Shown: in pieces, positions 2,214 through 39,103 of the stretch
Numbering within the stretch: the stretch's first letter is position 1
How the letters are laid out: each line of letters starts with the position of its first letter
Source: Rhizaria sp. SCN 62-66
Lineage: Eukaryota
DNA length: 45,794 nucleotides
Assembly (NCBI GenBank): GCA_001724265.1
Contig: MEDY01000049.1
Location: forward strand, 62,001-107,794
Direction: 5' to 3'
Notes under the pieces: generated by a model
The model's input: the letters and a program-made list of their open reading frames with translations, nothing else
Database searches by the model: none
What the model was told of the DNA's origin: nothing
Position numbers and translations under genes: made by a program

Positions 2214-3338
2214 ATGCTTTCGAACGCGAATAACCTTGGACGCAGTGGTCCTGGCTCAATGTCCCCGCCTGGCCCGCACACGCCAGCTGCTAACTTTACG
2301 CCCTTTGACGACCGCGTGCTGAACCGGCACTGGGAGATGCGCGCCGTGGACCACCCTGGCTCTGCTGGCCTGGGCAGCAGCTTGCCTGTGAGCAACAGCG
2401 AGCTCACTGTCGCGCACCTGCACCGCGCCGCGACCTGCGGCGACCTCAACACTATAATCCGCTGCCTCACCAACGACGACGTGCGCAAGGCTATCAACAC
2501 TCCCGACCACGGCGGCGCTACGGCGCTGAGCCACGCTGTGTTCAAGGACGCGGAGTGGTGCGTCGCCGCCTTGCTTAACGCGCGCGCCGACCCCAACGTA
2601 AAGCTCAGCGACGGCCGCACCGCGCTGCATGTCGCGGCGTACTACAACAAGACGGGCGCGCTGAAGCGGCTGCTGCAGAATCCGATGACGCGCACGAGCG
2701 AGATCAACTTCCCCGTCAAGCCGATGCTCAACGCGAGCATGATCTTCTCCCGCAACGGCGTCCTGATGGGCACGCCGCTGCACTTCGCCGCTGAGAAGAG
2801 CCGCTCGGAGGCGTTCCTTATGCTTGTTAAGGCCGGCGCGGACGCGGCTGTGGTGACGTTTGGGGGGGAGACGGCCCTGCACGTTGGTTGCCGCTCGCAT
2901 GTGAGCGCGGAGGGGTTGTGGGAGTTGTTGTGGGCGACCAAGACGCGCATGGCGCGCGAAGACGACGCTGCTGTCGCATACAGCAACAGCGTTATGACAA
3001 ATGACCGCAACAATAGCAGCAACAACGCTGACGACGAAAGCAGCACCAGTGCTGGCAAAAGCGAGGGTTGCGAGAGCAGTCCTGCTGAGGGTGCGGTGAA
3101 GCCTGAGAGCAACAACTGCGAGTCAACGGCTGGGGCTGTAACTGCGTCTGCGCCTGGGGCTGATGCTGAAGCAGTGGCGGACTGCGCCGAGACACATGAG
3201 GCACGTGGTATGACCGACACTGATGCCGGTACTCGGGACAACGCAGAGATTGTGTCTTAGACAGCTGCAGTTACTTCGCCGGCGAAGGTTGTGCATGAGA
3301 GCGCTCTCTGTGAGGAGGAAGAAGAAGCCGGGGTTTGA
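2214..3338 (+). CDS. Ankyrin-repeat protein with one in-frame TAG (3258-3260); 374 aa if TAG is sense
   Basis: Ankyrin motifs HLHRAATCGD, GATALSHAV, GRTALHVAAYYN, GTPLHFAA, GETALHVGC. ATG at 2214. After TAG 3258-3260, coding-like sequence continues (TAAVTSPAKVVHESALCEEEEEAGV) to TGA 3336-3338, where AT-rich DNA begins. Confidence 0.8.
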
Positions 3339-3781
3339 ACTCTAAACAGGGTTTAACTTGTGCCAAATTTGAAATTTTGAAGTTTGTCGCGTTTATATGA
3401 TGCGATACCTCGGGCCAGTTTAATTCGCATATTTGAATGCGACGTTTCTTCTTCCTTAGTCACTGTTTTTTTATTTGGGTTGAGAGATGCGACCAGATAT
3501 TCAATTGCGTAAATAAATTATTTGATTGTGAGAATCTTACAAACGTATTTTTTAACTGAAACGTGCATGTACAAAGTTTAATAATTGAGATATGAAAGAC
3601 GTCTGTATAAATATTGAAGCATAGCTGCAGACTAGTTAAAGATAGGGTTCACGAAATAGTCAATGTTAATCATCAATGTTAATCGTAATAATGAGAATAA
3701 GGAGAGGATAATTATTTTAATATCTTGCTAAATAACAGACTGGCTGTCAATGGTTGCAACAACAAAATGATACGAGTGAAA

Positions 3782-6700
3782 TTACCGCCAAGCATTCGGA
3801 CCCTCAGGCACCTGTTGAGTGTTTCCGTCGTTGTTGGCACCACTGCGACTGTTGTTGCTGTTGCTGCCGCTGGCATGCGCTGCGCCGCGCCTAATGAGCG
3901 CGGACTGTTCGCCCTGCTTAACGAGGTAGTCTTTGCGCCGCTGCGTGCACGCCCGCGCCAGCGCGCTGAAGGCCACATTGCCGCGCGCGGCCACCTCGAT
4001 CGCGCTGCGTTGCGCGCCGCTGGCGCCCACGGTGCGCGCCGCGGTGACGGGGTACGCGGGGCTGCCTACGCACGAGGCCACGACAGCGGCGGAGTGGTGC
4101 TGTGGCTTTGACAGTGGGGGGAATGGCAGCGCGGTGGCCGCGGCGGGGGCGTCTGAGAGGAATGCCAGTGAGGGCAGCAGAGACGGCGGGACAAGCGACA
4201 TCGACGACGGCGCATGGGTCATCCCAGCATGGTAAGGGCCTGGTACAGCAGCGGTAGTGTAATTGGGCAAGTCCGAGCCTGCCGTGCCGCGGGCCCGCAT
4301 CAGGCCTGCGAACACTTGCTCTGGGGGTTGAGTGTGCGCGGGCGAGGCAAAGTGACCGTGAGCGGCGAGGTTGTGACCGTGACCGTGGCCGCGACTGCGG
4401 GCAGAGACCGGCTGTCCTTGGCTTTGACTGAAGTGACTGTGTGCAGCTGATGTGAGAGACTCGTCAGCCTCGGGAAAGCTCTCGAGTGACTGGGAATGCA
4501 GCATCAACGACGGTGAGTGCTGCAGCAACGCTGCTTGCGACTGAGCCTGTGAGCCTCCAAACGACTGTGTCTGAGACACCGATTGCGACTGCGACTGAGA
4601 CCCGGTGGTGCTGAGCAGCTGCAGCTGCGAGAGCGACTGCGACAACGCCAGCACGTGCGAGTGCGACTGCTGCGACTGCAGCTGCGCGTGCGACGTCGCC
4701 GTCTGCAGTTGCCGCGACATCGCGCCCTCCGCGGTCGCCTCAGCGGCGGCCGCGGCCGCCGTGGCGGCGGCACGCGCGGCGGCCGCAGCGGCCACGGTTG
4801 CGGCCGTCACGCCGCCCGCGCTCGCCGCAGCGGCAGCGGCCGCGGCCGCCAGCGTCGCAGCCGTGACGGCCTCGCTGTTGCCGCTACGGCCCCCGTGGGC
4901 CTGCGCAGAGGCGTGGCTGCCTGCGGCGGTCGTGGTGCCGACGAGAAACGGCAGCGCGAGCGGGGACAGCAGCGGCAGCGCAGCCGCGCTGGGCGTCGCC
5001 GTGCCGCTCCGAGTGAGATGCGGGTACGCGTGCATCGTCGCTGGGGACACGTGAGCGGCACCGGTACAGGCCGCAGCGGCGGCGGCGGCGCGGCGCGTGC
5101 GGCGCGGCGACGAAAGCACAGCCGTGCTGGCAGACATGGGCAGGAGCGCGACGGGCGTCTCCACGCTGCCGCCGTGCGCGACGGTGAAGTTGTGCGTTCC
5201 ACTGGCGAGGGCAGAGGCGTTGTTGCTCGCGCCGTACACACTGTACTGGTTGAAAGCGTTCACGCCGCCGTTCCGCAGCGGCGACTGCATTCCCCCGCCG
5301 CCACCGTCCGCAGCCGCACTGTAAGCGCCGTGCCCGGCTGCGTGCGCGTGCGGACCGCGGGCGAGCGTGTACGGGGGAGCCTGCGTGAGCGACTGCGTGT
5401 GCGCGACGGCGCGGGCCCGCGTGCGCGAGCGCGGCGTCGCGGTCGGGCGCACCGAGCTCTGCAGCAGCGGCGACTGCGGCGCCGACGGATGGCCGGGCGG
5501 GGGAGCGTAGGGACTGTGCATGAAAGGACTGTGGGGACCGGTGAGGGGCGCGCCAGGGCCGCCCGTGCTGTTGAAGAAGACGGGGGACCCGGCGGTGTGA
5601 TGGGGCACAAGGCTGGAACTGCCGGGAATCAATGGCAGTCCTTGCGTCGGCGACTGCAGATATCCTTGCGGAGACTGAGCGTATAGAAACTGTTCGAGCT
5701 GTTGTTGCTGTTGTAGATGTTGTTGCATCTGTTGTTGTTGCTGCTGCATCTGCTGCTAATGTTGCATCTGCTGCTGTTGTTCCGGAGTGAGCGGCGTTGA
5801 CCGCGGGGACTGTGCAAACGGATCGCTGCCATCCAGGAACCCGCCGCTCGATGTAAGCATCATCACGGGGCCATACTCGTCTGCGCCACTGCCACTGTTT
5901 GTCCCGGGCCCGCTCTGGCCGCCCTGCTGCGTGTTGAGACCAAGCGCAGCAATACTGGGCGCCTTCGCGTTCTTCGCGGCGGCGGCGTCGACTGTAGGCA
6001 GTGGTAACATCGTCGCGTTGATTATCGCCACGCTTGTGTCCGCGCGCTTGCTACCGTCAACGCGAGTCGTGACCAAGTCGACGTGACTCGGCGCCAACGC
6101 GTTCGCATTGGCGCTGACAAGAGCCTGTATATCGACAAGAGCGGTGGGCTCAGAGCTGGCGCTCGCGGGCTGAATCGCCTCTAGATCCCGGTTGCGACTG
6201 GGCTTGCGGCTGTGGTGTCCCCCGCGACTGTGCCCGCGACTGTGCGCGCGGCTGTGTCCAACAGCGCTGACCTCACTGATGTTGCGGCTGTGCCGCCCCG
6301 TCGCTTTCCCGCCGTTGTCGACGTCGCGGCTGTGCGTGCGGCTGTGCAGCCCGTGGCCGTGGTGGCCGTGGGCCGCCGCCGGCGACGGACTGTGGGTCGC
6401 GGACCGCAGCAGCGCCACGTCGGGCGCCGGGGACGGCGACGACGCAGCGCCCGCAGCCGCGCCCGCGTCGAGACCGGGCGTGGGCGAGTGCGGCGTGCCG
6501 CCGTGCATCTGCGACGGGGCGCGGGACAGCGACCGGGACTGCGGCAACACGACGGCGCCCAGCCACCACTCTTCCTCTCTCGCGCCGTCGCCGGCCTCTG
6601 CAGCGGCGGCCGCCGCAGCGCTCACGGCCGCGACGTGATCGCTCTCGGTGCCGGGGGCAGGCGTGACGGACAGCATGACTCCGTGGTGCTGCACGGGATT

Positions 6701-7837
6701 TTCGGGGCTGTTTGACTTGGCAACGCCATGGCCGTACGCCACCGTTGCGACACTCGCGCGCGCATTATTGCCATGCGACCCGGCGCTGCTATTGTTGTTG
6801 CTGTTCGGGTTCATCCCAGGGGGGCTGTTGAGCGCGTTATTGGCGTTCGAGATCTGCACCAGCGACCGCATCCGGACGAGGTACGCCCTGGCCTCGCTCT
6901 CCGCGTCCGCGCGGTCACGCTCGCCGTCGTCATCAGCCATCGCCGGTCCCACTGCAAGTGCGCCGCCGCCGCCACCGCCGTCATCGCGCTGCGAACGCGA
7001 CTGCGAGCGCGACCGCGAGCGTGACCGCGACTGCGGGTGCAGGGGCGAGCGCGTGCGCACTGAGCGGGCGGTGAGGAACGGCGACCGGCGCCGCGACAGC
7101 GCCGGGGACTGCGACGGCGAGATGTCCCGCGGGTGCAGCAGGTGCGAGGGAGCACGACATGGCGACTGGGGCTGAGGCACATGCGTCACTGTTGGCGCAG
7201 CTGCAGGCCCAGCGGGGACCGAGCCCACAGTGGCCAGCCGGCGCACCGGGGGCGGCGAGCGCGCGTCACTGCCGTCCTGCTGCTCTTGTGCCTGCCCGGC
7301 GCGGCTGTGGCCGGACATAACAGTGCCGCGGCGAAGGATGGCGCTGGAATGCGTCTGTTCTCCGTGTAGTTGTCCAGGCAGCGAGAGCATTGACGCGCGG
7401 CTGTGGGTATTCGGCCGGGTCGTAAGGGTCGCAGGCAGCGTCGTTACCAGCGGGGCGTCGCGCCAGTACAGCGTCTGTGCCGTCGCCAGCGGCGCGGGCC
7501 CGGACGAGGCTCCTATGAGAGAAGAGCTCGAGCCGGAGGCGGTGAGCCCAGCTGCGGTGGCGGTCGCCGTGGGGACCAGCGCCAGGTCCAGGAGCAGCGC
7601 GTTCATGTTGGTCGCACGGCGGGACGGTGCGTAGGGCTGCTGCGTCGGCTGGTCGCGCTGCGAGTGTGGCTCGGCCAGCGGGTCGTGGATGAGAGAACGG
7701 CGAGGGTTGCTCGCAGGGGAGAGAGTAAGGCCGCGCGCGCGCGATGCGGGTGTCCCCATCAAATCCGGTGCGGACGAAAAGTCGCGAGAGCCTGAGAGCA
7801 CGTCCCCGCCCGAGTGTGGGGCGGACGGGGAGTCCAT
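3782..7837 (-). CDS. Large low-complexity (Ser/Ala/Gln/His-rich) protein, about 1351 aa, with one in-frame TAG inside a polyQ tract
   Basis: ORFs 5756..7837 and 3782..5749 are in the same frame, separated only by TAG (5758-5756) in ...CAG ATG CAA CAT TAG CAG CAG ATG CAG.... GC-rich coding character is unbroken with no AT-rich intron. Ends in TAA. No recognisable domain. Confidence 0.7.
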
Positions 7838-8296
7838 GTGGATCAGGGCGGCCCGAGCGCAGCAAGAGCAACGGAGGCTGCTTCAGAGAGTGTGGGATGG
7901 CTTCAGAAACGATTGCTGAAAACAGGAATAGAATCGTTCGAGGAGGGTTGTAAGAAGATTTCGTGTGCTAAACAGTACATCAAATGTGGAATCGTCACGC
8001 GAATGCATTTCTACGATGGCCTTGCTAAGAACAACCTTTATGAAAACAGTCGCTTCGAGCCTGACCCGCCACGATCCTTCCCATGGTTCCACGATCACCA
8101 CCCAAAAGTTGGCGCCGAAGACCTGAACTTAGTTCACAAGTCATGCAATGTTTTGATTGTCAAATGTACAAATTGGACTGTTTATGGATAAAAATTGTGT
8201 TTTATCTTAATGTGCCTTTATAAAACTGTGTATTAGTCTTACAATTCCTGTTTATTATTGTGTTTTTAAACCTGTAGTGCGAAGTCGACAACTCCG

Positions 8297-11200
8297 ATGC
8301 CGCACCCAACATCGGTTGGCTCCGCGGAGTCCCCACCGTCGCAGACCGCTGCAACGCACTCATGTGCAGTATGCGGCGCCGCAATGCCCTTATCGGCAAA
8401 GCGCGCCGCACGTCAACGCTCTGTTTGCAAGCCATGCTTGCTGGTATGTCGTGTGCAACCCGTGTGCAACCCATCCAGCTCAAACATGTTATCGAGATTC
8501 CATTCGCCAATGCGGCATGTAGACTCACCATCCATGTGTTATGGTTTTTTCCCTTGGTATATAGGCTGAGATTGAGGCTGGTGATGGTTCTGGTACTGAT
8601 AACGAGCTACCTGTCTCGGACAACACAACCACGAGCGCATCCGCGACCTCATCTGCAAGCGAGTCTGTCACTGATCGCGCATTCGTCGCGACCGCAGTGA
8701 AGTCGTTTGCTCGTCAACTGCGCGAAATGAAGTCACTGGGCACACATACTCCACCCACTATGGCCTTGCGTGACTCAAATCCTGCTGTCATAAACGAGAA
8801 CGGCAGCGGCGGCTCCACAAGTAAGGCTGAGCGACGCGATGAAAACGTAGGCGCACTTGACAAGACGCTGACTAACATTAGGGTTATTTGTGTTTGAATT
8901 TCCAAAATATCTCGAACTACGTCTCATTAACATCATTTTTGTCACTGCTACTGTCTTGTATTTGCGTCTAGTACTGTTACGAGCACCAGACACCGATCCG
9001 CATTGTGAACTTTTGCGACACATGCGTCACCCCGGTCTGTCACCAGTGCGCACTATTGCACCCTACCCACAAGGCGCACCAGTTTCGCACGGTTGTTGAT
9101 GTCGAGCTAGAACTGCTGGAGAGGACGAAGACGCTCCATGCGCTCTACGCCGACTTCACATATCGTCAAGACGTACGCATTAATATGACTATAGGTTACC
9201 TTCAATCCGCTTTTAAAAGAATCCATGTTCAGAAATCCAGCTGTGAAGAACTCACATGTCAAATTGTGTGCATTTTTTGTTTCCAGTCGCAATCCATTGC
9301 GATGTCCAAGCTTGTTTCGGCCTCGTCGTCACTTCTTTCGCACACAAAAGACGCTTCTGCGACGTCGCTATCCGTGCGTTCGGCGCGCCCCGCCATCAGC
9401 GCGCACTCGAACATTGCTGCCTACAACGACCTAGCACACAAACACGAGGCCTCACTGCGCGCCTCTGCCCTCGCCACGCTGCAGTCGATCACCGCGGCGA
9501 CAGCGACCCCGGCTCTGGCCACGCTCGCGCCGCTGCTGCTGGACTGTGCGTGCTGGCCCACCCGCGTCGCGCCCTCGCTCGTCGTTGGCCCCGCGCGCTG
9601 GCAACGTGCGCGCGCCGCTCTCGCCGCAGCGGCTGCGGACGCCGCGCGCGCCACGGCACCACTCGCAGTCACCGTCGCCGCCGCGGTCCCGGCCACCGCA
9701 TTGGGCGTGATGGTCGATCGCAAGTCCACCACAGTAGTTGCAGGCGCAGCTGGGGCGGAAAATCGTGTTTTTATCGGACAGACAGCGTATCACGGTCTGG
9801 TGATCTCGTACTATGCTGTGCGCGTGTGTGGTGGCTGCGGCAACTGCGAGCACAGTAACACCGTTGCCCACAGGCAAAACCGCGCCGCCGTCGAGGGCAT
9901 TTCATCGTCTCTGTCGTGCCCCTCAAGCACTACGACTGATGCGAACTCCAATGGTACCAGCCGTGATGACGTATCAGCCGCGCCCGTCTGCAGCAACGGC
10001 TGCGCTATCGGCGTCGAGGCCGTGGTCTCCGTCCCTCGGCACGCGCCGCTCCTGCAGTCCAAGTACCGCACCCACCGCGAGCGCGGCCGCGAGATTGCAG
10101 CCCTCTTTTCTGACGAGATCAGGGTTCAGGCTGACGCAGCCGCAACGGCAGCAGCGGGTGCGGACGTGTCGCTGCCGTACCCCATGTTGCCTGCAGCCAC
10201 TCACAGTATTAGCTCGAGTCAGGTGACGAGCAGTGTGCTTGATCCTGTCGGCCCCAGCGCGGCTGAGAGCGGCAACGCGCCAACGGCAGTTGCTGTTGGC
10301 AAGGGCAAGACCAAGAACAAAGCTAAGAACGCGGGGACTGCCTCGGCGAGTTCCTCAACAGTCACGGGGGCGACTGTGTCAGACGTGGGCGCCGCGACTC
10401 CGTCAATGGTTGACATCGCCGTCTTCTCGGTTGACGCCACAGTCACCGTCGTCGCCGCGGCGGTTTCTCCCAGTGCGTTTACTCCCAGCTTCTTGTCGCC
10501 GGCGTGGTACGCGGAGAAACTCATCGCCGCCGCGCGCGCGCTGCCGCCCAATGAGGCGCTGTGCGTGCCGAGGTAGGTTGCCGTTAAGGCGGAGAATGGT
10601 GAAGAAAAGAAGAGCGAGGACAGTGTGAGTGCGCGTGCGACTGGTGCTAGTGACGCAAAGCCAGCTGAAGCTTCGGCGAGGTATATCCCGTCGAAGCTTA
10701 TCTGCCGCTATCCGACTCTGTTACCGAAGGCGGCTCGCGATGACATGGTACTAACGCCCGCGCCGTATACGAGTGAGGCGCTGAGTCGTGCGCTTGCTGA
10801 AGCCCACAGTTAGTCCCGAAATAACTCTGAGATTACGACGGCCGGTCTCGGCAGCGGTTTTGAAGATGTCATCTGGACGCTGCAGTCTTCGGCAGCTGAC
10901 GCATTGGCGTTGACGATCGCGACTCCGACAGACCCTGTTGTGGCAGCAGTCTCCAATGCGGACGCAGATGCTGATACGTCAGGATTGTCAGCCACGGACG
11001 CAGCTTCTGCTGCTCTCGGTAGCACCGCAACGCACATTGCGGACGCTGACTCCACCCATGTGTCGTCATCGCCAGCGCTGGCCTCAATCCCCGGAGTTGT
11101 GGACGTCATCATGCGCTCTCAGAGCGTGGTCACCGTGGGCGCAGCCGTCTCCACAGTGGGCCGCGGTGCAGTAGTGACTGTGAGCAGCGTCGCCGCAGCG

Positions 11201-13558
11201 TGCACTGAAGTGCTTGAGCGGAACGCGGCCGAAACCCTAGCAGCTAGGGCAGCTGCGAAGGCCGCCGCGAAGGCTGCGAATGCTCTCGCCAGGACGAAGG
11301 CGCGGGCAGAAAGGGTAACTGCGAAGGCAGGTGGAATGCGGGGCTTGCGACGAAGCGCGCGCGCTCGGGCTGCTGGCTATGGCGACGAGAAGAAGACGAA
11401 GGATGGGCGTGTGCTTCTGTTCTCAGTTGACTTTGGGCCTGCAGACGAGGATGACAGCGACGATGCGGACTATGTGGCAAGCGACGACTGCTACAGCAAC
11501 GAAGACGACGAAAATGAGGATTGTGAGAAGGATTCTGGTTCTGACGACTGCGACAGTGGCAGTGGCAGCGGAAGCTTTGCTACAGACTCTGAGTGCAGTG
11601 GATTTAGCGACGGATTCACCGACCCAGATGAGCATTACGCGGACCACGATAGTTAGCTTATCAAATAGCTGCTAGACAGCCACCCGAGTCATAAGATGAC
11701 TATGCGGGGACACAACAGCAATGCGGCTCGACAAAAGTTCGACAAGTGCCTCAGCAGTCTTATGTATGATGCTGTGGATAAGTACTACTGCTATGACATC
11801 AAGAAAGATTACAAATATGGCATGAAGGTGAGGCTTGCTGAAGCGAATGCAAAGGCTGAGGCGGAAGCCGCTGCGAAAGACAAGGCTGATGCAGAGGCCA
11901 AAGCAAAGGCGGAGGCAGAAGCCGAGGCAAACGCGATGGCTAATGCGGAAGCCGCTGTAAACGCGCCGGCTAAGGCTCGAGCTGGTTTAGACACAGACAA
12001 GACAGATTCAGGCACAGACAAGGTAGACTCAGACACTCAAGCTTCTGATGAGGAACACGAGGTCATCCCTAGATCTGCTGCTACCGAGAAGGTGTGCGCT
12101 GTTGAGGATGCAAATTTGGAAATTTATGTCAACTCAAAGGCTGATGCGAAGATCTCCACTGACAGTAGTGTTAATCCAGTCCCACCCAAGTCTGATCCGG
12201 AGTCAGAACCGACGTCTGACTCTGTTTTTGAGTCTGATCTCGAGTTAGAGTCAGAGTCCGACTCGGAAACAAATGCTTTAATCGAGCATAAGACCGAGTT
12301 TTATCTCCACTTCTCACTTACCGCGCGTGTTGGTGACGTATTTCAGCAGACCCGTCTGCTGCGGCTGCTGAGCGAGGCACATGACGAACTTGAACTCGAA
12401 CTTACAAACGAGACATTCTCGTTTGAAACCAAGCTTCTGAACTCGAGTGTTCCGCCATTACTTCTCTCACTCAACGTGAACAATCTTGAGAGTCACAAAG
12501 GCATTGCCATCAGCAACAAACTGACTGCAGCCGACGCTATCACTTCCCTCTCCGCGGCATCCGCGACCGACCTCTACACCCACGCGCGCGCACTACTTGC
12601 GCGGCAGGTTCCGCGTATTTTGCCTCCGTACGCTGCCCCGCCGAACGCGAGCTTGCTGTACAAGTGGCGTATGCCAGGCGACGCCCGCTACAACGGGCAG
12701 CGGCTGCGCATCATGATCGACGATGATGAGTTTCCGTGTCACGCCGCCAGTCTGCGCATGTTGGCGTACAAGGGTCGCCATGCCGCGTTGAACGTGCACA
12801 CGTGCTACAAGATGCTGACGGCTGACTGCGTTGCTCGGAATCAGGCTAACAGCGCTGCCGAGGTCGAAAAAAGCGATAGGTTGTCATTTGCTCAGTTTCT
12901 CGCAGTTGGCTTTGATCAATGTTGCAACAGTCTCGGTCTTAGTACTGTCAAGCGCATCACGGACGACAGTGAGAGCGAAAGCAAGAGCAAGACCGAGAGC
13001 TTTTGTCTCAACCCTGCGGCTCTCTGTGACCGGTTCTACAACGAGTGCACAACGCCTGCCACGAAGACATACCCCGCTGGCACAGTGTTTGCGCTATCCA
13101 TGTCCGCGTCACCGGCTACAGTGAATCATGCGATGTTTCTTATTGCGATCGCGCCCATCGCAGCCAAAGACGCGCCTGGCGCTGTGCCTGTGGGCTCCGT
13201 CGTGTCAGAGACGGGAGGCCCCGCAGTGGCACCGCCGGTGCTGCCGTCGGGGGAGAAAACAACGAAAACATCGATAGTGTCGACGATTGCGTCTGGGGAA
13301 AAGAATGCATCGGATGGTGATTCTGCGAGGACGACTCCAGTTGATGTTGAAGGTGGACTGGAGGCGGAGCTCATGCAGATCTGGTACTGGGCGCGGGCGC
13401 ACTTGAGCAAGAGCAACCGCTATCTCGAGAGCAGGAACAAGATCTTTGGGAGTGAAGGCTATGCTGACGGATGTGGAAGTAAAAATGACAATAATCGCGA
13501 ATGCAAGGCCCAGCTTGAGTTTGTTGGCTTTTATGACGGTGAGCAAATGGGCGAGTGA
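8297..13558 (+). CDS. CxxC-CxxC / B-box zinc-finger protein, paralog A (about 1633 aa), four in-frame TAG codons
   Basis: Exons 8297-8443, 8565-8846, 8972-9172, 9287-13558; all introns phase 0 GT-AG. Exon 1 encodes CAVC...CKPC; exon 3 encodes the B-box YCYEH...FCDTCVTPVCHQCALLHPTHKAH. ORFs 9005, 10625, 10904 and 11696 share one frame, broken only by TAG at 10574, 10811, 11654 and 11666. Ends in TGA. Confidence 0.75.
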
Positions 13559-16844: not shown

Positions 16845-17225
16845 CACTGTAGGAGATGAAGGCAGAGGAGAAGGCCAATATTTTAGTAAAATGACTATTT
16901 GTGCGTTTCAAATTGGGTTGCACTCTGTATGAGTCTACTGTGTGCTTCGCTGTTCAGCGCTGCATGATTTACGCCGTGTGCGGGCGGTCAACGAGCGCAG
17001 CGGCTACGGGGACGAGCGAACTTTCAGCTAGTAGAACAACGAGTAAAGTCCGTGTAGTACAGGTGTCACACTTTGCACATACTGTTTATGTCATACCATA
17101 TATTTTTCCAAAATTGTATTTGAACTGCCTCACTATTCGCTCACTTAGCACCTCTTTTCACTTCCAACCACATTTTCTCTACTGCTCGACTCCGCACCTC
17201 GCCTGCCGCGCTCCGTCCAGGCTCC

Positions 17226-23861: not shown

Positions 23862-23897
<36 letters not shown>

Positions 23898-26800: not shown

Positions 26801-27027
26801 ACAGGCTCAGGCACGCTCGGACTCGGACTCGCACTCGCGCTCGCACTGGTGGCGCTATCAGGCGCAGTCGCTGTAGAATCACTTGCAGTCGCAGAGTCTG
26901 CGGCGGAGTCTGAGGCTGAAGCTGAGGCAGAGACACCAGAGTCACCCGAGTCGCCTGCGATGTTGGCGGCGGGGCCACTGGCCGGCGACGGCTCAGCTGT
27001 CGCCGTCGTCGTCGTCGTCGTCGTCGC

Positions 27028-27062
<35 letters not shown>

Positions 27063-28537: not shown

Positions 28538-29514
28538 TTACTTGCCGCCGCAGCAGTCGCCGCACTTCTCGAGTTTGCTCATGTCGGTGCCCGAGGGCGC
28601 CTGGCCGAAGAAGCGCAATGAGTTGACCTTGGTTTTGTCGGTCCCGTTCTGGTTGCTGGCCACGAACACGGTCACATTGAGCGTGTTGGCGAAGGGAAGC
28701 GGCTTGAGCTCGATCGCCTTACCGGCAAGGTGCTCGGGGGTCAGCTCGAACACTTGCGCTATGAGAGACAACACGTAAATCACAACAAAGCAAAACAATA
28801 CAAGACAAGTAACAGTGTGAGGTTGAGTGTCGATCGATACGCAATGAAGCGGTTTGGCATAGCAACGACGTGATTATGACACATAGGTGTATATTTAGTC
28901 ATTTTACGCTGTTTCGCTGTAGAATATCGAATATGTGGACGTACCGGGCTTGATGGTGTCGACGTCGTCGAACGACATGTTGGGCTGGTTAACGTAGACA
29001 CGCACCTCCTTGGGCCCGCTGGCCTCGGCAGAGGGCTCCAGAGAGACGATGCGGAGGCCGCGGAGACGCACGTGAGAGGTGAAGGGAACCGTGAGCAGAA
29101 GCTGCTCGTCGGAGTCGGACTCGAGGGCGGCTGTGCGGGGGCGCAAGGGGGCGAAGCAAAGGCGATTGCAGCAGAGCAGGAGGATTCGTTAGGTATAAGA
29201 AGGCGTATAGAGGAAAGTCGAGGTATCGCAGCTAAATTGAGGTGAGATAGCACACGACTCGGCAAACCTAGAAATACACAGGTAGTATATAAGATGACAC
29301 AGCAAACTCGCTCTGTGGTGTCACTGTGGCGAGATATGGTCCATCTTGACGCGAATGATGAAGCTTGCGAGTCGTTTGTGGCTGACGTACCAATGCCGTT
29401 GCCGGTGAGGATGCTGTTGACATCGGCGTCGGCAGGGATGTTGAGGGCGTGGGCCTTGTTGGGGGTGATCTTGTCCTCAAGATCGACCACGTTCGTGGCG
29501 CTCAGCGCGGACAT
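28538..29514 (-). CDS. PITH-domain (proteasome-interacting thioredoxin-like) protein, 176 aa
   Basis: Exons 29514-29391, 29130-28945, 28758-28538 (both donors GTACGT). Motifs LESDSDEQLLLTVPF, GPKEVRVYVNQPNMSFDD, IELKPLPFANTLNVTVFVASNQ..TKVNSLRFFG. Ends in TAA. Confidence 0.9.
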
Positions 29515-29877
29515 GCGGGACGAAACGGGGGTCTGTGGCACGGAGTGGGAGCAGGGGCAACGTTCGAGAACGGGGATGATAAGCGGAATTGTCATTGAGC
29601 GACACAGAAACTGAATTTAGATGCATAATTAATAGACATTACAATTAACCATAGTTTATATATCGGTGCAATACCTGACGCCGATTTGTCGATGGAAATG
29701 CGTTCAACTTTGTCAGATATCATCTGCTCAACAATCGGGTCAGCCACGCAGAGCACCCCATGCCTCTTTTCAATCTCCCGCCACAGCGTCACACATCAGA
29801 CTTTCAACGCATATCTTCGCTCAAACTTTGATAACACATGCTTTCAACTTAATTTGCGTTCCTTTCGCACCCCAGAT

Positions 29878-31610
29878 ATGCTTGCCACGCGGTCATTCGC
29901 GCGGACTTTTAAGGCCGTCGTGCCCCGCTCGAGCGCCGCCGCCGCTGCGCTCTTCTCTTCCGCGGCCTCCGCGGGCGGCAAGGGCGACTACAAGGTCACC
30001 CAGATCGTCTACTCCAAGAACGGTCCCCCCGCAGAGACCCTCGAGTACGTGCACTCACAAGCACTTGCATCACGGTCGCGATATCGCACCAACACTCCAA
30101 CTCGTCAACTCACGTGATCTTTCCATCTTTTTCTTCTCGCTTTCCGCCGTCCCTTTCCCACTCCGCCCCGCAGACTCGCTACCGCGACCGTCTCGAGCCC
30201 CGGCGCGTCCCTGGCACCGCGGTCTGTGTTTGTGCGCCAGATCTGCGCGCCTATGAACCCCGCCGACTTTAACCTCGTGGAGGGCACCTACGGCGTCAAG
30301 GCCCCGCTGCCCGCGATCGGCGGTAACGAGGGCCTGTTTGTCGTCGAGGCCGCGGGCGCCGAGTCCTCGCTCGCACCCGGCGACTGGGTTATCCCCACGG
30401 TGCCTAACCTCGGCACGTGGCGCTCGCACGCTGTGCTGGAGGATTTCGCGCTGTGCAAGATGCCCCAGACTGTGTCCGCCGAGGCCATCGCCACGCTCTC
30501 CGTCAACCCCTGCACTGGTACGCTCAAATCACTTGATAACAACTGTATACTTGTCGAGATATTAATTTGATTGATGCTATACCGTACACTTCAATTGATA
30601 TGAGTTCATCTAAGGTCCTTACTGTTCTTATTCTTTTCATGCTGCGCATTTGCAACCAACCCACTCGATTCATATTTTTTTTTCTCATTTATTTGTCTCT
30701 TCTATTTTGGTTTTTGTTATTTTCATCATTTAGCGTACCGCATGCTGTGCGACTTCGTTTCCCTGAAGCCCGGCGACGTGGTGCTCCAAAACGGCGCCAC
30801 CTCTGGGGTTGGCAAGGCCGTGATCCAGATCGCCAAGGCCCTGGGCGTCAAGACCATCAACATCGTCCGCGACCGGCCCGACGTCGCGCAGACGCGGCTC
30901 GACCTCATGTGCCTGGGCGCCGACGTCGTGGTGACCGAGTCCGCGCTGCGCAACAAGGAAGAGATGAAGGGCGCGCTCGCCGCCGCCGGCATCGACAAGA
31001 AGCCGCGCCTCGCGCTCAACTGCGTTGGCGGGCCCCTGGTCGGCGATATGGTGCGCCACCTCGACGCCAAGGCCACCGTGGTCACCTACGGCGGCATGAG
31101 CAAGAAGCCCATCACGCTCGGCACTGGTACGTTTCATAATAATGTTTTATTTCGATGATATATACGAACTCAATTCACGTGATATATGTGTGTTTGCTAT
31201 GGAGTTGATTTGTTCTTTTAGATTCTCATTATTTCACAATCTTTCATTGAGATATATGATTCGTTTCGTAATCGTTATGTGACAGGCATTTGAACGCAAC
31301 ATAAATCTCTGACATTGCTTTTATGATGACTCGCTTCTTCATTTCGTCTTTTTCAGGTCCGTTCATCTTCAGCGACCTCTCGCTGCGCGGCTTCTGGATG
31401 ACCCAGTGGAACGCGGAGCACGCGCCGTCCGACCCCAAGCGCATGTCGATGCTGTCTGCGCTCATCCAGCTTATCGAGAAGGGCCAGCTCAAGACCGACA
31501 CTGTGACCGTCGAGGTCGCCTCGCAGGCCGACGTTGTTAAGGCCGTCGAGATGGCCGGTGCGAGCCACAAGACCTCGAAGGTCCTCATCAAGTTCCCCAA
31601 GCAGGCGTAA
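29878..31610 (+). CDS. MECR: Mitochondrial trans-2-enoyl-ACP/CoA reductase (MDR family), 385 aa
   Basis: Exons 29878-30044, 30174-30517, 30734-31126, 31357-31610. Motifs APMNPADFNLVEGTYG, GGNEG, GTWRSH, ATLSVNPCTAYRML, QNGATSGVG, LALNCVGG, VTYGGMSK, FIFSDLSLRGFW. Presequence MLATRSFARTFK. Ends in TAA. Confidence 0.95.
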
Positions 31611-32015: not shown

Positions 32016-33455
32016 TTAGAAGAGGCCCTCACCAGCGGGCGCGATGAGCAGGTCCAGCACAGGTAGGCCGTTGGGCACTGCACAGAGCTTCGCCAACAGG
32101 CTACACAAAACAGAAGCAGCAAAACAAGATACAAAAGCATAAAGGACAGACATAACATAGTGAGCGCTATAGTCAATGACTAGAATGAACATAATCAAGA
32201 ATTGACATAATCACCAAATTGTGCAGAATATGTGTAATATGTCCACAAAGAACGTACCCTGTGAGCTGGAGCAGCGAGTCGCAGCCGTCGGCGACGCGCA
32301 TGTGCGTCATACCGATCTCCTTGATGAAGCCGAGCTTCTGCGCGTCTGGCAGTGGCGCGGCCTTGCAGACCTGGAACAGCGACGAGGCGAGATCCACGGC
32401 CGCGTAGCCCTGCACCCAGAGCGTCTCCAGGGACGTGATCGCGGAGTGGAGCTTGCCGGACGCGCAGTCGGACAGAATCGACTGTGGAGAAGCAAAAACA
32501 AAGGGAAGAAAAGAACAGATTCACAAATTAGTTGTTAAAACCACAATAAACATAAAACACTCTAAAATTGAAGAGGCCCTCTAAAGAAACATTGTTTACG
32601 TCGAAACATAAAGCTATTATTCATGAGGCCATGTTATCGTTGAGATATAAGGTCGTGAGTAGTCCGTACTTGGATGACGAGAGGGTGGGGCTGGTCGACG
32701 ACCTTAAGCACGTTCTCTGCCGTCACGGCGCCCGTGCCCGCAAGCGTGGCCTGTAGGTTATTAAGCGCCTGGCGCATGTCGCCCTGCGCAGTGTACACAA
32801 TCGTCTCGAGCCCTGCGTCGTCGTACGCGGAGACGTTCTCGTGGTCGAGCACTTCTTTGACGCGGCGCACGATGTGAGCGTCGCCGAGACGCGTGTAGCG
32901 CACGATCGCACAACGTGACTGGATCGGCTCGATGATCTTGGAGCTGACGTTGCACGCAAGCGCAAAGCGCGTGGTCTTGGAGTAGATCTCCATGGTGCGA
33001 CGCAGCGCCTGTTGCGCGCCTTTTGTCATCGAGTCCGCCTCGTCGAGAATGATGATCTTGTGGCGCGAGGGCGGGAGGTTGACCTTCTTCTGCGCGAAGG
33101 CTTTGATGCGGTTGCGCACGACGTCAATGCCGCGCGAGTCGGAGGCGTTGAGCTCCAGCACGGCCTCTTTGCACTCGCTGCCGAGCAGCTCGCGCGCGAG
33201 ACAGAGGATCGAGGTAGTCTTGCCAGTGCCGGGCGGGCCGGAGAGAATGAGGTTCGGCAGGTTGCCTTGTTTAGCGATGATGCGAAGGCGCGAGACGGCC
33301 TCCTCGTTGCCCACGACGTCGTTAAGCAAGCGGGGGCGGTACTTTTCAACCCAAGGGAGCGAGGAAGTCTGATCTGTCGTCACCGCGGAGGCGGAGGCAG
33401 AGGAGGCGGAGGCCGTGGACGAGAGGACAGCGTCCTCGTCGGTCATCGCGGACAT
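32016..33455 (-). CDS. RFC2: Replication factor C small subunit (human RFC2 / yeast Rfc4), 364 aa
   Basis: Exons 33455-32670, 32481-32258, 32100-32016. Motifs PWVEKYRP, Walker [42 protein letters not shown], and C-terminal [27 protein letters not shown]. Ends in TAA. Confidence 0.97.
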
Positions 33456-33772
33456 ACCGGCTGCTATTGAAGAAGGGCCGTAAAACAATTTTGTTGGAAG
33501 GGAGAATATTATGAAACAAAATCTGGGTGTAGAGATCAGACGTGTTTACGGAACTTCGAGGTCATAATATTGTGAACAAGATTGGCGTCGACAAGGCGCC
33601 AACTCGCGAAGCCAGACTCGCCCGCCACCACATCTTCTCAGTAACATCGTCAAGTCAGTCGCATATACTGCATTTAGATGTGAGGCGTGGAGTTTGAGGT
33701 TTATCTCACGATTAAATATTGTCTAACAAATTATTTTCTTCTTGAATGCAATCTTAGGACCACGACAACCTG
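33456..33772. promoter_or_regulatory. Probable bidirectional promoter between RFC2 and XPA
   Basis: 317-bp gap between divergent start codons; inferred from gene geometry only. Confidence 0.45.
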
Positions 33773-35711
33773 ATGTCTGGGCTCGGGTCCTCATGCGACT
33801 ACGATGACCGCGACGACTGCGTGCCCGACGACGACCTGGACGCGTCCTACTTCGAACAGAGCGCCACAGACTTTGCCGCCGAGGAAGCCGCATGGAACGC
33901 CGCAAACACGTTCACCACAACACCCAATAACAGTCACCCTAGCGCAGTCGCAGTCATGAATCTCTCTTCCGCCGTGAGCAGCAACACCTCTACTCATAGC
34001 AACAGTCTCTCAACTACCGCTGTCGCGCCGTCCCTGGCATCCGCACTCGCCGCGACTATTGCGCACGCGTCTTTGTGGCGTTGCGTTGTCTGCGGCTGCG
34101 GGTTAGCGCATCCCAACGACGCTGCCGCGCGCAAAGCCGTCGCCGCCGCGTCGAGCGGCAACGCTTCCCTCAACGTCTTCCTCCCGACCTTCTACCGCGC
34201 GTTCCGCGTCTGCCTCTGCTTCGCCTGCTCGTCCCGCGCCTTTGACACCGCCGCGGCGGCCGCACAGGCTCTGTTGGTGCTGCCGCCGCCGACCCCCGCG
34301 GCTGCGGCGCGCGCAATCGCAGACTCGCACGCATTCGCCGCCGCCGCGGCTCGCTCCGAGCTGCTCAGCACCACCGCGCCCGCGGCGCCCGCCGCGCCCG
34401 GGTGGAGCGGGAGCCACAACGCGGGCGGCACGGCCGTGAGCATGGGCGCCCGCGGCTCGGCCTCGGCGCCGCTGCCCGCGCCGCTGCCGCCGGTGCCGCC
34501 GCCGCCGCCTCCCGCTGCGCTCGCAGCCGCGGTCGCGGTCGCTGCAAACAGCAGCAAGACAACAACTGCCCTGAGTAGCGCGTCAAGCGATGACGGCGCT
34601 GTTGTTGTAGCGGGCGTCGTGGTGCCCGCGCTAGTTCCGCTGCCGTATATCACCGACGACGAGGCCTTCCACGTCGCGCCGTGGGCATTGTCGGCGCGCT
34701 CCACGCTCAAAAACACATTTTTGCTCACCGACGACGATTTCTTTGGTCTCGCGTTCATCTCTAAGCCGAACCCGACGCACCCAACGTGGGCGCCGATGCG
34801 GCTTTACTTGACGGCACAGGCGGCGCTGCTGGCGCTACGTCGGCACGGCAGCGCGGCGGGCATGCGCGCAGAGGCGCAGAAGCGGGCGCTGGCGCGGCTG
34901 CAGCGGCGCACGGATGCCGCGATGGCCGCCGCCGACGCCGAGGCTGACACCGACGATGGCGGCGATGACGCCGCCGCGGCTGCTGCTGATGATGGCGGTG
35001 CGAGTGGTGTGGGGGGAAAGGCAGCTGATGGCGGCGGGCTGGGGCAGTTCATTAAGAAGAAACAAAAGGCTGCTGCGAAGGCTGAGGCCAAGGCAGCTGC
35101 TAAAGGCGTCACCAAGACTGTTGAAAAAACTGATGTGGAGACTGGAGATGCTTATCATGATAGTGAAGGTTCTGGCGACACGGATGTCGGCTTTGTTGCG
35201 AAACGTAGCCGCAAGACCACAGACAGTCAGTCAACAACAGTGAGCCTTCGAGATGACGACGGCGATGACGACGTTGTTGCTGTCGATGAGGATGCTGATG
35301 CGACTGACAGCAAGGGCAAGATCAAAGGTAAAGCTGTCAAGGGCAAATGCAAAGGCAATGCGACTGCTGCTGCGGAGATTAAACCGAAGACGAGGGTCAC
35401 GAAAGCAAAGGGAGGGAAAGGTACAGACTCCGCTGCTGCGAAAGCTGGAGCTCAGCAGTCCGCATCCGCGGCCGCATTTGCGCAGTGCGTGGCGCAAGGC
35501 CACCAGTACGAGGCTGTTGCTGGTAAATCTGGTACGTCAAGACTACCACGCTCACTATTCTTTATACGATGACGTTAATATCACATTTAATATATCATTA
35601 AATAACCTCTTATTATTCTTTGACTCATTAAACCGTATTCATTTATCATATTTTGTAGTTGAGCGCTGTGTGCGCTGCGGTGCAGAGAGTGAATTTGAAG
35701 AGTTCTTTTAA
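33773..35711 (+). CDS. XPA: XPA/Rad14 nucleotide-excision-repair protein, 603 aa
   Basis: Exons 33773-35531 and 35659-35711. Zn-finger CVVC...FRVCLCFAC; XPA core LKNTFLLTDDDFFGLAFISKPNPTHPTWAPMRLYL...ALRRHGS; C-terminal HQY...RCVRCGAESEFEEFF. Ends in TAA. Confidence 0.88.
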
Positions 35712-36406
35712 TGCATCATAGGAGATGCTTCTTGATGCGCCAAACATTGTTCTTTTTCAATTCAAAGCTTGACGACGTAATGGTCAGGTTACATGTTTCA
35801 ATGCGTCGACAATCAACATCCGAGTTTATTTATTTAGAAATGTGATTTATAAAGCGAAACATATCAGTACATACACGTGAGCACATCATGCAGTTTTGTC
35901 ATTCGTCAACAGTTACCTGACATGTCGAATCGTTGCTATCCATCTGTCGCGTCGCAACCTGTGTTCATCATCATCACGACTCCAAGCTATGATGAATTTC
36001 CGAGCTGAGCGCTGGAAAAGGCATGTGTTCAGATGCAGCGTGTTATGGCTCACGGAGCTAAGCAGCGGCGTTAATTTCAATAAGATTGTTAATAACGGAC
36101 TCAGCCGCCAGAGTTGTTTGATTTGCTGAGCTGAGGCCGTGGATGATATTGTGCGTTGGCGCATCACAAGTCAGCCAACGCTCCCTCAGTTGAGCAGTTC
36201 CATTGAGAATTACCACAACTACCTCACAATTCTTCTTCTTTCTAGCATCAAGTTGGCGCAACTTTACGTGAACTTTTTTGTGGCCTGTACTTTCCAAGAT
36301 GGGGAGATTAGAATTTAAGGAGATATATGAAGTTTACATGTACGGATACCAATGAATATGCTCAATTATGCTCTATATCGAAGACTGTATTGAGGGGAAA
36401 TACAAA

Positions 36407-39103
36407 TTAAGTTTGTACTTTCCAAGAGGTGGTGCTGAGCAACTCTTGCATTACATTGTCAAACAACGTCAATTTTTTTGTCTCGTTGTTATGCAGCTTC
36501 GGCCAGTTTGCTCTTAGTGAAGAATCGGCCTCCTCGAGCTTGACCTGGTTTATGGCCGCCTTTGTCGCCTTGACGTCGGCCGCGGGGACAACGCGGGCGG
36601 ACACGGGACTGGCCTTGCCAGCGGCCGCGGGCTTGATGCTGTGGATGGCAGAGATGAGCGCGGCGGGCAAAACTTTAGGCTTGCCAGCAGCGGCACCAGT
36701 GGCGGCGGCTTGCTCCGCCTTCTTCGCGGCTTCTTTAAAGGCAGCAAGCTCGGTCTTGAGAGACTCCTCGGTTTTCAGGGAGTGGGACGCGGTGGCCGCA
36801 GCAGCAGCATTAGCGACGTTGTCGGGCGTATGTTTCACAGCATGCTCGACGGGCTCAGCGGCAGCAAGGACAGACATATCGAACGAGGCGATCGCAGATA
36901 AAAGATCAGCAGGCTGACTGGCGAGGGTGGCCACTCTAAGCGCCATAGCATCGGTGTACAACTGCTGAGCACGCGCTTGCTGCATAACGTCGGGGAACGA
37001 CACTACACATTGCACACGAATTCGTGACTTCACCTAACTAATATTGTTGGCAATCTGTTTTGAATCATGTGCAAACAGTACCTAACTGACATTATCAGAA
37101 AGAACGAGTGAAACAACAGCAATGCGTGACTTCTCCTTTCCAACGCTGGCAGCAATCATCACGTCTGACCGATTATTTTCTTTGCTCTCCTCGTAAAGCC
37201 ACACCTCGCATGAAGCAGTCGTCTTACAAGATTTGTTACTGCTTGTATCGAGCGCAGAGATAACGGTAACTTCTGCGGTTACGCGGCCAAAAGTATTTGC
37301 AACAGTTGCAAACGGTGTTGCCACATGTTTTGCAGTCTTCATGAGATCCATTTTAAATGTGGAATGCGATTCGACTGGAGGACGGCAAGTTTTGCTATCA
37401 TTGTCGCTACGGCCACTGCCAATTTGATCCTGATCTTTCATAACAAAATCGTCACCGGCAACATCATCGCAGAAATGATCTTCTGTAAACACAAGATCAT
37501 CAACAGCACGTGCACGTGAGCCACATGCCTCATACAACGCAGCAAGCATTTTGCACGACGGCTCCGCCGTAACTTCGCACACGATCCCACATAAGCACAG
37601 GTTCTGCCTGTCGACACCTTCAATTCCGTTACCGTTTTTTGCAACACGGACAATATTTGCTTTCGCGCAACTGCAACCGCGGCCCAGGCGAAAACGGAAA
37701 CGCACACCGCAAAGCTCAGCTGTGCCAAGCTCCACCGGCTTGGCACCGAGCGCAAGCTCTGAGATTGGAATATCTGCTTCACAAACGGCTTTGCGCGGGG
37801 TTAAACCCGTAGCAGCGTCAGCCAGTGCGGCCTCAAATGCCTCGCGCGCGGCTGCGTGCTTTGTACTCCCAACCTCAAGTGGTGGGTCAACGCGTGCAGG
37901 CCAACCTGTGCTTGCAGTGACGAGCGCAGCCATCTCCGTGATATCGGGTGCGACGACCGACTTTGTGAAGCTCTCCAGGTTGTCGCGAGCCACGACAAGC
38001 TTTTTATCTTCAGCGATAATCGATTGTGCGGTATAGAGTTTGAGCTGGGACAACACTGCCGCAAGGGGCGCGGCAGCCTGAACAGCAAGCATCTTGCTTT
38101 GATCGAGCAACGCTGTGTGCTTACTGTTGACCATATCCCTGAACTCCGCCATTGCAGCTGCTTGTTCCTGAGGTGAGAATCGAAGAAGAAACAACACATT
38201 TTACGTTACGTACATGAAAAAAAATTAGAAATGTGAGCGGGTATTATTACGGAGATTGCAATTTCCGATTGCAATTCCTCACTTTGTGACACAAGCAAAA
38301 GCTTCCAGCTCTCTGTTACGAACCTAAACTTTGCACTCAAAGCTGCCAAGCTGTAATGGCAGTTGCTCCGCGCAAATTTTAAGCTGTGTACGCACATCGC
38401 TAATCATGCGGATATTGTGACCCACATGAGTGCGGCTCCTCACATCGCACTGGAGGCACACCGTGGAGTTGCAATTGTCGCACCAGTTGATGATCTCGAT
38501 GGGCTGCCCGTGCAAGTGGCAGTACTAAAGCAGTAGCAACAGCAATAATAAGAAATACAAACAATGTTAGGCTGTTGCACCATGTTTTTGATATTAAATC
38601 ATGCGAAATCGACGACGCATAGTTGAGTGTAACGAATGAGTGAATCTGATGGAGTTGTACAGGAGCGATAATAAAAGTGAGAGCCGAATCGAAATGTGGT
38701 GGAGTGACCAAGCGTACGTTTGGGGCATCAGCAGGAATGCTTGATTGTTTGTTGTCTGCAGCAACGTTGTCGTTAGAGGACTTGTGGCCGCGAATCCCCG
38801 TGTTAGTCGGGACTCCAGGGAGGTCATGCTTTGCAATCTCAGCCTAATGAAAAGAGTTAGAAAGTGAACAAAAATATTGATAGCCATAGTTGCGTTCAAC
38901 TAAATCTGCAGAATCATAATGGCTGACTTCGCCTCATGTATCGCTTACGACAGACTTTACGATAGCAAATAGAGAACACAAGAAATACAAGGACTTGGAA
39001 TCTGTAGACTTACCTGTATGCAGTTCTTACAAAGGCGAGATGGTCGGCCTCCGGGTGGAAGACTCAGAGTTCGGCCACATATAAGGCAGCTAGAAACACT
39101 CAT
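36407..39103 (-). CDS. CxxC-CxxC / B-box zinc-finger protein, paralog B (about 725 aa), three in-frame TAG codons
   Basis: Exons 39103-39014 (MSVSSCLICG...LCKNCIQ), 38843-38718, 38524-38324 (B-box YCHLH...WCDNCNSTVCLQCDVRSRTHVGH), 38167-36407. Same exon layout as paralog A. TAG at 38326-38324, 37084-37082 and 37036-37034. Ends in TAA. Confidence 0.75.

Follow-up and report, generated by a model that had tools for sequence, protein, structure and literature searches.

Does UAG still stop translation in the organism that left behind a 45,794-nucleotide (nt) stretch of contig MEDY01000049.1 (positions 62,001 to 107,794, assembly GCA_001724265.1)? This stretch, deposited under the name Rhizaria sp. 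SCN 62-66 and referred to here as the window, carries four genes with in-frame TAG codons: an ankyrin-repeat gene (Ank), a long glutamine-rich open reading frame (the polyQ ORF) and two paralogous B-box zinc-finger genes, Bbox1 and Bbox2 (the B-box itself was scanned with Pfam in Bbox2 only). On the basis of our results, UAG is likely to be a sense codon in this organism. More fully, we think it quite probable that the window is nuclear DNA of a GC-rich, intron-containing and uncultured eukaryote present in wastewater-type metagenomes, in which UAG specifies an amino acid, most likely glutamine (Gln), and UAA and UGA are still stops. The reading of UAG as sense apparently extends to relatives of the organism, and the case is a probable further example of the UAG-only codes already known in a few lineages.

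Nine in-frame TAGs in these four genes had been claimed by the original prediction, and all nine were present and in frame, each of them within a long frame bounded only by TAA or TGA. Five are on the forward strand (3258-3260, 10574-10576, 10811-10813, 11654-11656 and 11666-11668) and four on the reverse strand (5756-5758, 37034-37036, 37082-37084 and 38324-38326); below, each is named by its first base. The absence of frameshifts and of internal TAA or TGA was likewise borne out, as the four genes contained no in-frame TAA and no TGA over 3,943 codons and no frameshift was needed to read them. TAG is a rare codon in the window (9 in about 10,100 codons of the listed frames) and is concentrated in fast-evolving, lower-GC genes.

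The codons that end genes are different. Our count for 15 delimited genes reproduced the one proposed earlier: nine end in TAA (PDZ, polyQ, GlyRS-like, PITH, MECR, RFC2, XPA, Bbox2 and WD40), six in TGA (Ank, if TAG 3258 is read through, Bbox1, the FG-like ORF, Ada3, ORF 24553-27699 and CENP-X) and none in TAG, a tally that covers few genes and in which the place of Ank depends on the reading under test. It rests on worked-out last exons for RFC2, MECR, PITH and XPA. The three genes previously put forward as evidence that TAA is a real stop, XPA, MECR and PITH, do end in TAA. Termination at homology-supported C-termini was observed for TAA in PITH, the GlyRS-like gene, MECR, RFC2 and XPA, and for TGA in CENP-X and Bbox1. 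The TAA lies at or near the end of the Pfam profile in PITH and in the anticodon-binding domain of the GlyRS-like gene, and the TGA stands at the profile end of CENP-X and at the C-terminus common to Bbox1 and its relatives. Base composition also changes at gene ends: GC dropped in the 75 nt past each of 13 terminators examined, by 0.01-0.37. In-frame UAG within coding sequence that homologues translate was found in one lineage-specific family only, and not in housekeeping genes.

That family is the one of Bbox1 and Bbox2. The central inference of the original prediction, with UAG as sense and UAA and UGA as stops, is supported by the relatives of Bbox2, by the order of motifs in Bbox1, by an exon-final codon that is TAG or CAG and by TAGs in relatives. 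Members of the family share regions with the patterns WPxRVxPPLxVG, a VSFPDVVQQARALQL motif and a C-terminal RIRLDDxxFPxHAA / PGAVPVG domain. No Pfam family matched its large domains in the three parts scanned (P0008, P0010 and the C-terminal part of Bbox1). The family appears to be lineage-specific, judging from its occurrence in databases: a search of 5.8 billion proteins yielded only seven of the family, one of which was the window's own fragment. Nothing was found in a first JGI metagenome scan with the C-terminal part of Bbox1, or when genome-contig and viral-contig collections were scanned with the family alignment, and a second metagenome scan gave four short relative loci (L001-L004). 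The B-box proteins of the window and L002 are about 55% identical.

Bbox2 (36407-39103, reverse strand; zf-B_box in Pfam, E=6.7e-6) consists of exon 0 (39103-39014), exon 1 with the B-box (38524-38324) and exon 2 (38167-36407), and ends in TAA. Its first TAG (38326-38324) is the last codon of exon 1, and the other two (37084-37082 and 37036-37034) lie in exon 2. A search with the protein recovered its own truncated product, P0004, which ends at TAG 37084, together with six relatives of 35-47% identity from other metagenomes. In alignment A1, five of the six (P0005, P0006, P0007, P0008 and P0010; 42-47% identical overall) ran uninterrupted and with matching length across TAGs 37084 and 37036, and the read-through stretch was flanked by the conserved blocks AVxxLxLP... 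and RVxCxVSFPDVxQQA. In P0009, the remaining relative, the protein ends in precisely the column that TAG 37084 occupies.

The end of exon 1 could be compared among three loci (alignment A4), with GTT TAG|GTTCGT in the window, ATT TAG|GTTTGT in L002 and GTT CAG|GTCCGT in L003, which belongs to the gene of P0009 (100% identity over 108 residues). All three rejoin exon 2 in phase 0, giving EQAAAM in the window, MQRNSM in L002 and EQNAAM in L003; exon 2 of L001 begins with EQGAAM. In L002, no GT precedes the TAG; a donor can thus only lie behind it, which makes this TAG exonic. The B-box and the downstream domain are joined in one ORF in Bbox1, which indicates that the fused protein is the architecture of the family. 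To arrive at this architecture, Bbox2 of the window and L002 would need to have the TAG decoded.

A different explanation of these sites keeps the standard code and puts the TAGs outside the mature coding sequence, either because they are spliced out or because they are true stops and the downstream parts are translated from a conserved Met of exon 2. Some features agree with it: GT comes after three of the TAGs, all members of the family share a Met six residues into exon 2, and there is an intron-like AT-rich stretch in exon 2. The latter, a possible short intron of 48 nt (37081-37034, reverse strand, GTACTG...TTAG), has a GC of 0.33 against 0.51-0.57 in its flanks and starts with GTAC like most donors in the window, and its acceptor AG would be that of TAG 37036. 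However, it is less than half as long as the shortest of the 11 introns recognised in the window (about 103-489 nt), the five relatives have coding sequence of equal length where the intron would be needed, and the model keeps TAG 37084 in the exon. The lack of a GT upstream of the exon-final TAG in L002 also speaks against splicing.

The same question can be asked of Bbox1 (8972-13558, forward strand), in which a B-box exon and a 114-nt intron (9173-9286, GTACGC...CCAG) are followed by one long exon with TAGs 10574, 10811, 11654 and 11666 that ends in TGA. The intron is in frame and free of stops, so that the raw ORF continues across it and proteins called for databases would contain residues encoded by the intron. 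To this extent, frames can stay open through introns here, which is a further point in favour of TAGs outside the coding sequence. Within the long exon, alignment A2 placed an FGRV-like block before TAG 10574 and an F-x-DV-x4-Q block just after TAG 10811 in the same frame, and the C-terminal domain (RIRLDDxxFPxHAA, YPxGTV, PGAVPVG) follows TAG 11666, again in the frame of the upstream motifs. P0007, P0008 and P0010 hold all of these motifs within single proteins. Because the motifs share one frame and are joined in relatives, Bbox1 is one gene whose frame crosses four TAGs. The middle part with the four TAGs, used as a protein query, returned only the window's own fragment. An alignment of TAGs 11654 and 11666 with a conserved W...F pair was rejected as an artefact: judged by eye, the corresponding motif of Bbox1 is EFYLHFSLT, which matches the EFYTHIACT-type motif of L004 better and is located further downstream.

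Candidate introns that would remove the TAGs of Bbox1 were considered and rejected. An intron at 10573-10813 would be 241 nt long and shift the frame; one at 10573-10809 would be in frame and leave TAG 10811 in place; one at 10565-10813 would have a poor GTGCCG donor and conflict with the RNA data below; one at 11652-11668 would measure merely 17 nt; and one at 11598-11675 would have a poor GTGGAT donor. More broadly, TAGs 10811, 11654/11666 and 5758 cannot be taken out in frame by any GT..AG pair that has a plausible donor. A contig of the polyA RNA library (X5 record 20, 10747-11055) is colinear across TAG 10811, with the TAG unchanged. The library had no cover in bins 8076-9403 and 12060-14051, from which no inference is drawn, and the comparison of RNA and DNA contigs gave no usable splice joints, the joints being dominated by low-complexity cross-matches. 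Taken with the evidence from Bbox2, we regard the placement of the TAGs outside the coding sequence as very improbable. Instead, these sequence comparisons place them within coding sequence that would have to be translated to give the protein architecture of the relatives.

Relatives carry TAGs of their own. L001 is the contig of P0005, a protein that breaks off where a TAG interrupts a pure run of CAG (cagcagcagcagcag TAG cagcagccgcagcag); past this TAG, the frame is open for 254 codons, to a TAA. L004 has two in-frame TAGs within the conserved C-terminal domain.

Most of the TAGs recur outside this assembly. Several public runs, described as bioreactor, wastewater or activated-sludge metagenomes, yielded assemblies with near-identical DNA, and runs X1-X4 contained 78-100% of the words sampled from positions 2214-12200. 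The window was compared over one stretch with contigs of three such runs and of the polyA RNA library (X5). Six of the nine TAGs (3258, 5758, 10574, 10811, 11654 and 11666) were unchanged in contigs of other runs (X3 records 1, 2 and 5; X4 records 10 and 13). X3 records 1, 2 and 5 and X4 record 13 showed no difference from the window; X4 record 10 represents a different strain, which differs at 5430, 5517, 5617 and 6024 and yet keeps TAG 5758. Because these six TAGs are identical in independent assemblies, assembly error is excluded for them. Confirmation of the TAGs in DNA and RNA reads had been suggested; six of the nine were seen again in DNA assemblies and one, TAG 10811, in a contig of the polyA RNA library, which may contain DNA, the three TAGs of Bbox2 falling outside the stretch compared across runs. 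Strain differences numbered 14, of which 12 are in listed frames (5 at third positions, 4 synonymous), too few to show purifying selection.

Two further genes contribute one TAG each. Ank (2214-3338, forward strand; Pfam Ank_2, E=2.4e-17) has TAG 3258-3260, 25 more codons and TGA 3336-3338. GC is 0.57 in the 75 nt past the TAG and drops to 0.37 only past the TGA, a course that hints at read-through. The polyQ gene (3782-7882, reverse strand) is an orphan low-complexity ORF of 1,366 codons with poly-Q, poly-A and SQ repeats, which ends in TAA. Its TAG (5756-5758) stands within a CAG/CAA run (QQQQMQH-X-QQMQQQQQQ), where an 18-nt internal repeat of the tract predicts CAG. The two halves of the ORF share a coding-type GC at the three codon positions (0.69/0.62/0.79 and 0.69/0.61/0.78), with no AT-rich spacer between them. 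An exhaustive search of 1.84 billion representative proteins with this ORF, read with table 15, found only the window's own two fragments.

A possible tenth TAG was seen upstream of XPA, where the first ATG (33746) is followed by CAA TCT TAG (33755-33757), in frame with the main ORF. This would be a 3-codon upstream ORF under the standard code and a 9-residue N-terminal extension if TAG is sense, depending on the transcription start.

A number of observations weigh against the reading of UAG as sense, and many of them bear on a second explanation under the standard code, namely that nonsense mutations of the CAG-to-TAG type have accumulated in recent pseudogenes or dispensable genes, these being the B-box family, the polyQ ORF and the tail of the ankyrin gene. 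Of the stops that a single step can produce from the codons of these genes, TAG is the most frequent (54-63%), and the probability that simple decay would give nine TAGs out of nine is 0.004-0.016, which is suggestive and not decisive. The argument of the original prediction that decay should also leave TAA, TGA and frameshifts therefore holds as to their absence and is weaker than was stated. Those affected either evolve fast or are orphans. Bbox1 and Bbox2 account for seven of the nine TAGs, and the eight other listed frames, with 220 CAG/CAA codons in all, have none; decay within a gene family would concentrate them in the same way. In GC-rich DNA, open frames are often long: among chance same-frame ORF pairs (at least 150 codons, one stop between them) in non-coding GC-rich frames, the intervening stop was TGA in nine, TAA in one and TAG in four. 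Since such split pairs are common, long flanking ORFs alone prove little for the 70%-GC polyQ gene, which is an orphan in DNA where long open frames come cheaply. In L004 (637-2429), a 1-nt frameshift interrupts the conserved VSFPDV-QQARALQL motif, and about 120 residues of the N-terminal domain are missing. These defects point to a pseudogene copy or else to a misassembly, and on their account we give the locus little weight.

Decay has, however, to account for nine TAGs out of nine in the window and four out of four in relatives without a single TAA, TGA or frameshift in the 3,943 codons. It also has to account for an exon-final TAG common to the window and L002 despite the divergence of their proteins, for the end of P0009 at the column of TAG 37084, for TAGs fixed in two strains, for the presence of Bbox1 in a polyA RNA library and for the absence of genes that terminate in TAG. 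On balance, we consider decay under the standard code quite unlikely.

Other points against UAG as sense concern single sites and the limits of the data. The original prediction took each TAG as sense. TAG 37084 stays exonic even if the 48-nt stretch is an intron; TAG 37036 could be the acceptor of that intron, and TAG 3258 could be an ordinary stop. The RNA-library contig spans one of the nine TAGs, and carry-over of DNA into the library is possible and rare spliced forms are not visible in contigs. Strongly conserved columns hold none of the TAGs, and alignment therefore leaves the amino acid unfixed; the residues aligned to the TAGs vary: T/V/V/R and N/N/N/H in relatives, D in the paralogue and Q in L003. 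No RNA gene, and hence no tRNA of any kind, was detected by Rfam or ARAGORN in the 45.8-kb window or in L001-L004, and eRF1 is not among the genes of the window. Finally, the codons that precede the TAGs show a bias towards T and AGT that is not explained by plain reassignment.

This bias is as follows. Seven of the nine TAGs are preceded by T, compared with 20% T at third positions (P = 3.6e-4), four are preceded by AGT, which makes up 1.6% of codons (P = 7e-6), and five follow a Ser codon. The sites are 10808-10813, 11651-11656, 37034-37039, 37082-37087 and 3255-3260 in the window and 2025-2030 and 2358-2363 in L004, whose two TAGs are preceded by TCT and AGT. AGTTAG is not enriched window-wide (13 observed, 8.6 expected). 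Such a pattern, found both in the window and in L004, would suit a dual UAG that terminates in some contexts and is decoded in others (for example, after U or a Ser codon) through partial, ambiguous or programmed read-through. The rarity of TAG and its confinement to few genes would suit it as well, and TAG 3258, with a TGA only 25 codons behind it, could be a stop, whether leaky or real. In Condylostoma-type ambiguous codes, the choice between stop and sense reportedly depends on the position relative to the mRNA 3' end. On the other hand, none of the 15 genes ends in TAG, Bbox1 requires four TAGs to be decoded in one mRNA and thus a high efficiency, and the TAGs within CAG runs come after CAT and CAG, which makes any context rule less than absolute. 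For these reasons, a context-dependent UAG appears unlikely, and it is kept as the main rival to UAG as a sense codon.

The scarcity of TAG, its uneven spread and the context bias fit an inefficient, recently captured codon that is tolerated in weakly constrained genes, and the same features would also fit context-dependent decoding. There is also a bolder proposal: an unplaced clade of GC-rich wastewater eukaryotes would read UAG as Gln mainly after U, especially after the Ser codons AGU and UCU, and might terminate at it elsewhere, under an independently evolved, context-gated code outside ciliates. We consider this version unlikely.

If UAG is sense at all, Gln appears to be its moderately likely meaning, given that TAG 38326 aligns with CAG in L003, that TAGs occur inside CAG runs, both in the window (5758) and in L001, and that the 18-nt repeat of the polyQ tract predicts CAG where TAG 5758 stands. 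With Gln, the code would correspond to NCBI table 15. Decoding would then be carried out by a CUA-anticodon tRNA, for which tRNA-Gln(CUG) is the probable source, alongside an eRF1 whose recognition of UAG may be weakened.

What kind of organism is this? The contig is at least 45.8 kb long and carries about 17 genes. Coding GC reaches 66-75%, compared with 45-55% in spacers (2-kb windows) and 23-52% in the first 75 nt past stop codons. Pfam identified a PDZ protein, an ankyrin-repeat protein, a GlyRS-like class II synthetase-type protein, Ada3, PITH and a MECR-like reductase, and further RFC2/4, XPA, CENP-X, an Mpo1-like protein and a WD40 protein. The GlyRS-like class II aminoacyl-tRNA-synthetase-type gene (14873-16907, reverse strand; tRNA-synt_2b and HGTP_anticodon) contains introns and ends in TAA. 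The PITH-domain gene (28538-29616, reverse strand; E=9.2e-9, profile 105-171 of 176) ends in TAA 28538-28540. The gene for the MECR-like enoyl reductase (29880-31610, forward strand; ADH_N and ADH_zinc_N) has three introns with GTACG donors and ends in TAA 31608-31610. The gene for the RFC2/4 clamp-loader subunit (32016-33455, reverse strand; AAA and DNA_pol3_delta2) has two introns and TAA 32016-32018, and its product is 65-78% identical to RFC2/4 proteins. XPA (33746-35711, forward strand; XPA_C, E=2e-10) has a 127-nt intron (35532-35658) and its true end at TAA 35709-35711, and CENP-X (41422-41658, forward strand; profile 2-74 of 74) has its TGA exactly at the profile end.

The 11 introns, recognised by homology and frame structure, include 32669-32482, 32257-32101, 30045-30173, 30518-30733, 31127-31356, 15729-15572 and 35532-35658. 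Donors start with GTACG in 8 of the 11, the other three being GTCCGT, GTTCGT and GTAAGT. This GTACG consensus is unusually uniform and could help to place the organism or to train a gene finder. A GC-rich ORF of 776 codons (17289-19619) contains tandem repeats of 39-42 nt, the unit of which includes TTCGGCGC (Phe-Gly in one frame). The ORF has no Pfam match and may, to judge from its repeats, be an FG-repeat nucleoporin.

RFC2 was used to place the organism, as had been suggested. Atlas entries for RFC2 and the GlyRS-like protein pointed to no taxon. The best named RFC2/4 matches (59-74% identical) come from plants, green algae, chytrids, other fungi, animals, ichthyosporeans and a haptophyte, and environmental proteins reach 78%. 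A tree was built from 38 of 121 sequences, namely the window, 24 named sequences and 13 environmental ones picked from the 120 matches listed. The window fell in a clade of 12 rows made up otherwise of environmental sequences only (support 99/96), which lies outside the sampled animals, ichthyosporeans, fungi, green plants and one haptophyte. It joined no named group in a sample without stramenopiles, alveolates, rhizarians, amoebozoans and excavates. When genome contigs were scanned for RFC2, only two archaeal loci and one weak match (27% identity) in a bacterial genome were found, all of them in metagenome-assembled genomes.

How does this case compare with codes already described? The original prediction named the fornicate Iotanema spirale and an uncultured rhizarian as known exceptions to the joint reassignment of UAA and UAG; both are documented (PMC5304391), and the list was incomplete, as phyllopharyngean ciliates, for example, have to be added (PMC11687900). 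In Iotanema, UAG is Gln and UAA and UGA are stops, and the predicted mechanism is a tRNA-Gln with anticodon CUA together with an altered eRF1 (PMC5304391). The window resembles it in that UAG alone is reassigned, UAA is kept as a stop and Gln is likely, with a mechanism that is proposed here as it was predicted there. Iotanema is an anaerobic fornicate represented by a transcriptome, whereas the window has GC-rich genes, introns with GTACG donors and an MECR-type enoyl reductase. The meaning of UAG was set there by likelihood, whereas Gln in the window comes from hints in the sequence. In contrast to Iotanema, moreover, the window groups only with environmental sequences by its RFC2.

The rhizarian exLh reads UAG as Leu and keeps UAA and UGA as stops, and the scarcity of UAG in its ribosomal-protein genes was taken as the sign of an inefficient, recently captured codon (PMC5304391). 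Both cases are UAG-only changes in a non-ciliate, and the absence of UAG from the conserved genes of the window is similar to its scarcity in the ribosomal-protein genes of exLh. They differ in that exLh uses Leu and lives in an insect, whereas the window hints at Gln and its near-identical DNA comes from wastewater-type metagenomes.

Among ciliates, phyllopharyngeans are described as having undergone three UAG-only events, with Leu in one lineage and Gln in Hartmannula and Trochilia (PMC11687900), and a ciliate with different meanings for UAA and UAG has also been reported (PMC10553269). The phyllopharyngean codes are like that of the window in reassigning UAG alone, with UAA as the preferred stop; they too were mined from metagenomic or genomic data. 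It is our impression, formed without a direct comparison, that a many-gene contig with coding GC to about 70% and introns of about 100-490 nt seems unlike a ciliate macronucleus. Codes with ambiguous stop/sense codons are known from Condylostoma, Parduczia and karyorelicts (PMC4967479; bioRxiv 10.1101/2022.04.12.488043). If the upstream-context bias is functional, the window would be similar to them in that UAG decoding depends on context; unlike in these codes, UAA and UGA behave as dedicated stops in the window and TAG ends no gene. Literature searches, which did not extend to supplementary files, brought up no account of a UAG-only code for a non-ciliate lineage that is GC-rich or comes from wastewater.

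In practical terms, standard gene callers split the genes of this clade at TAG, as the truncated database proteins P0004, P0131, P0132 and P0133 exemplify. Several related species are already visible in metagenomes, where the contigs that encode P0006-P0010 measure up to 208 kb. Since genomic DNA of the organism is in hand, it should be possible to retrieve its tRNA and eRF1 genes from public runs that already exist. More generally, different meanings for UAG and UAA are very rare in nuclear codes, being described, in the sources cited above, for one fornicate, one rhizarian and a few ciliate lineages. Such codes inform on the co-evolution of release-factor specificity and suppressor tRNAs, and a further, apparently non-ciliate, lineage would, if the reading is true, add an independent data point.

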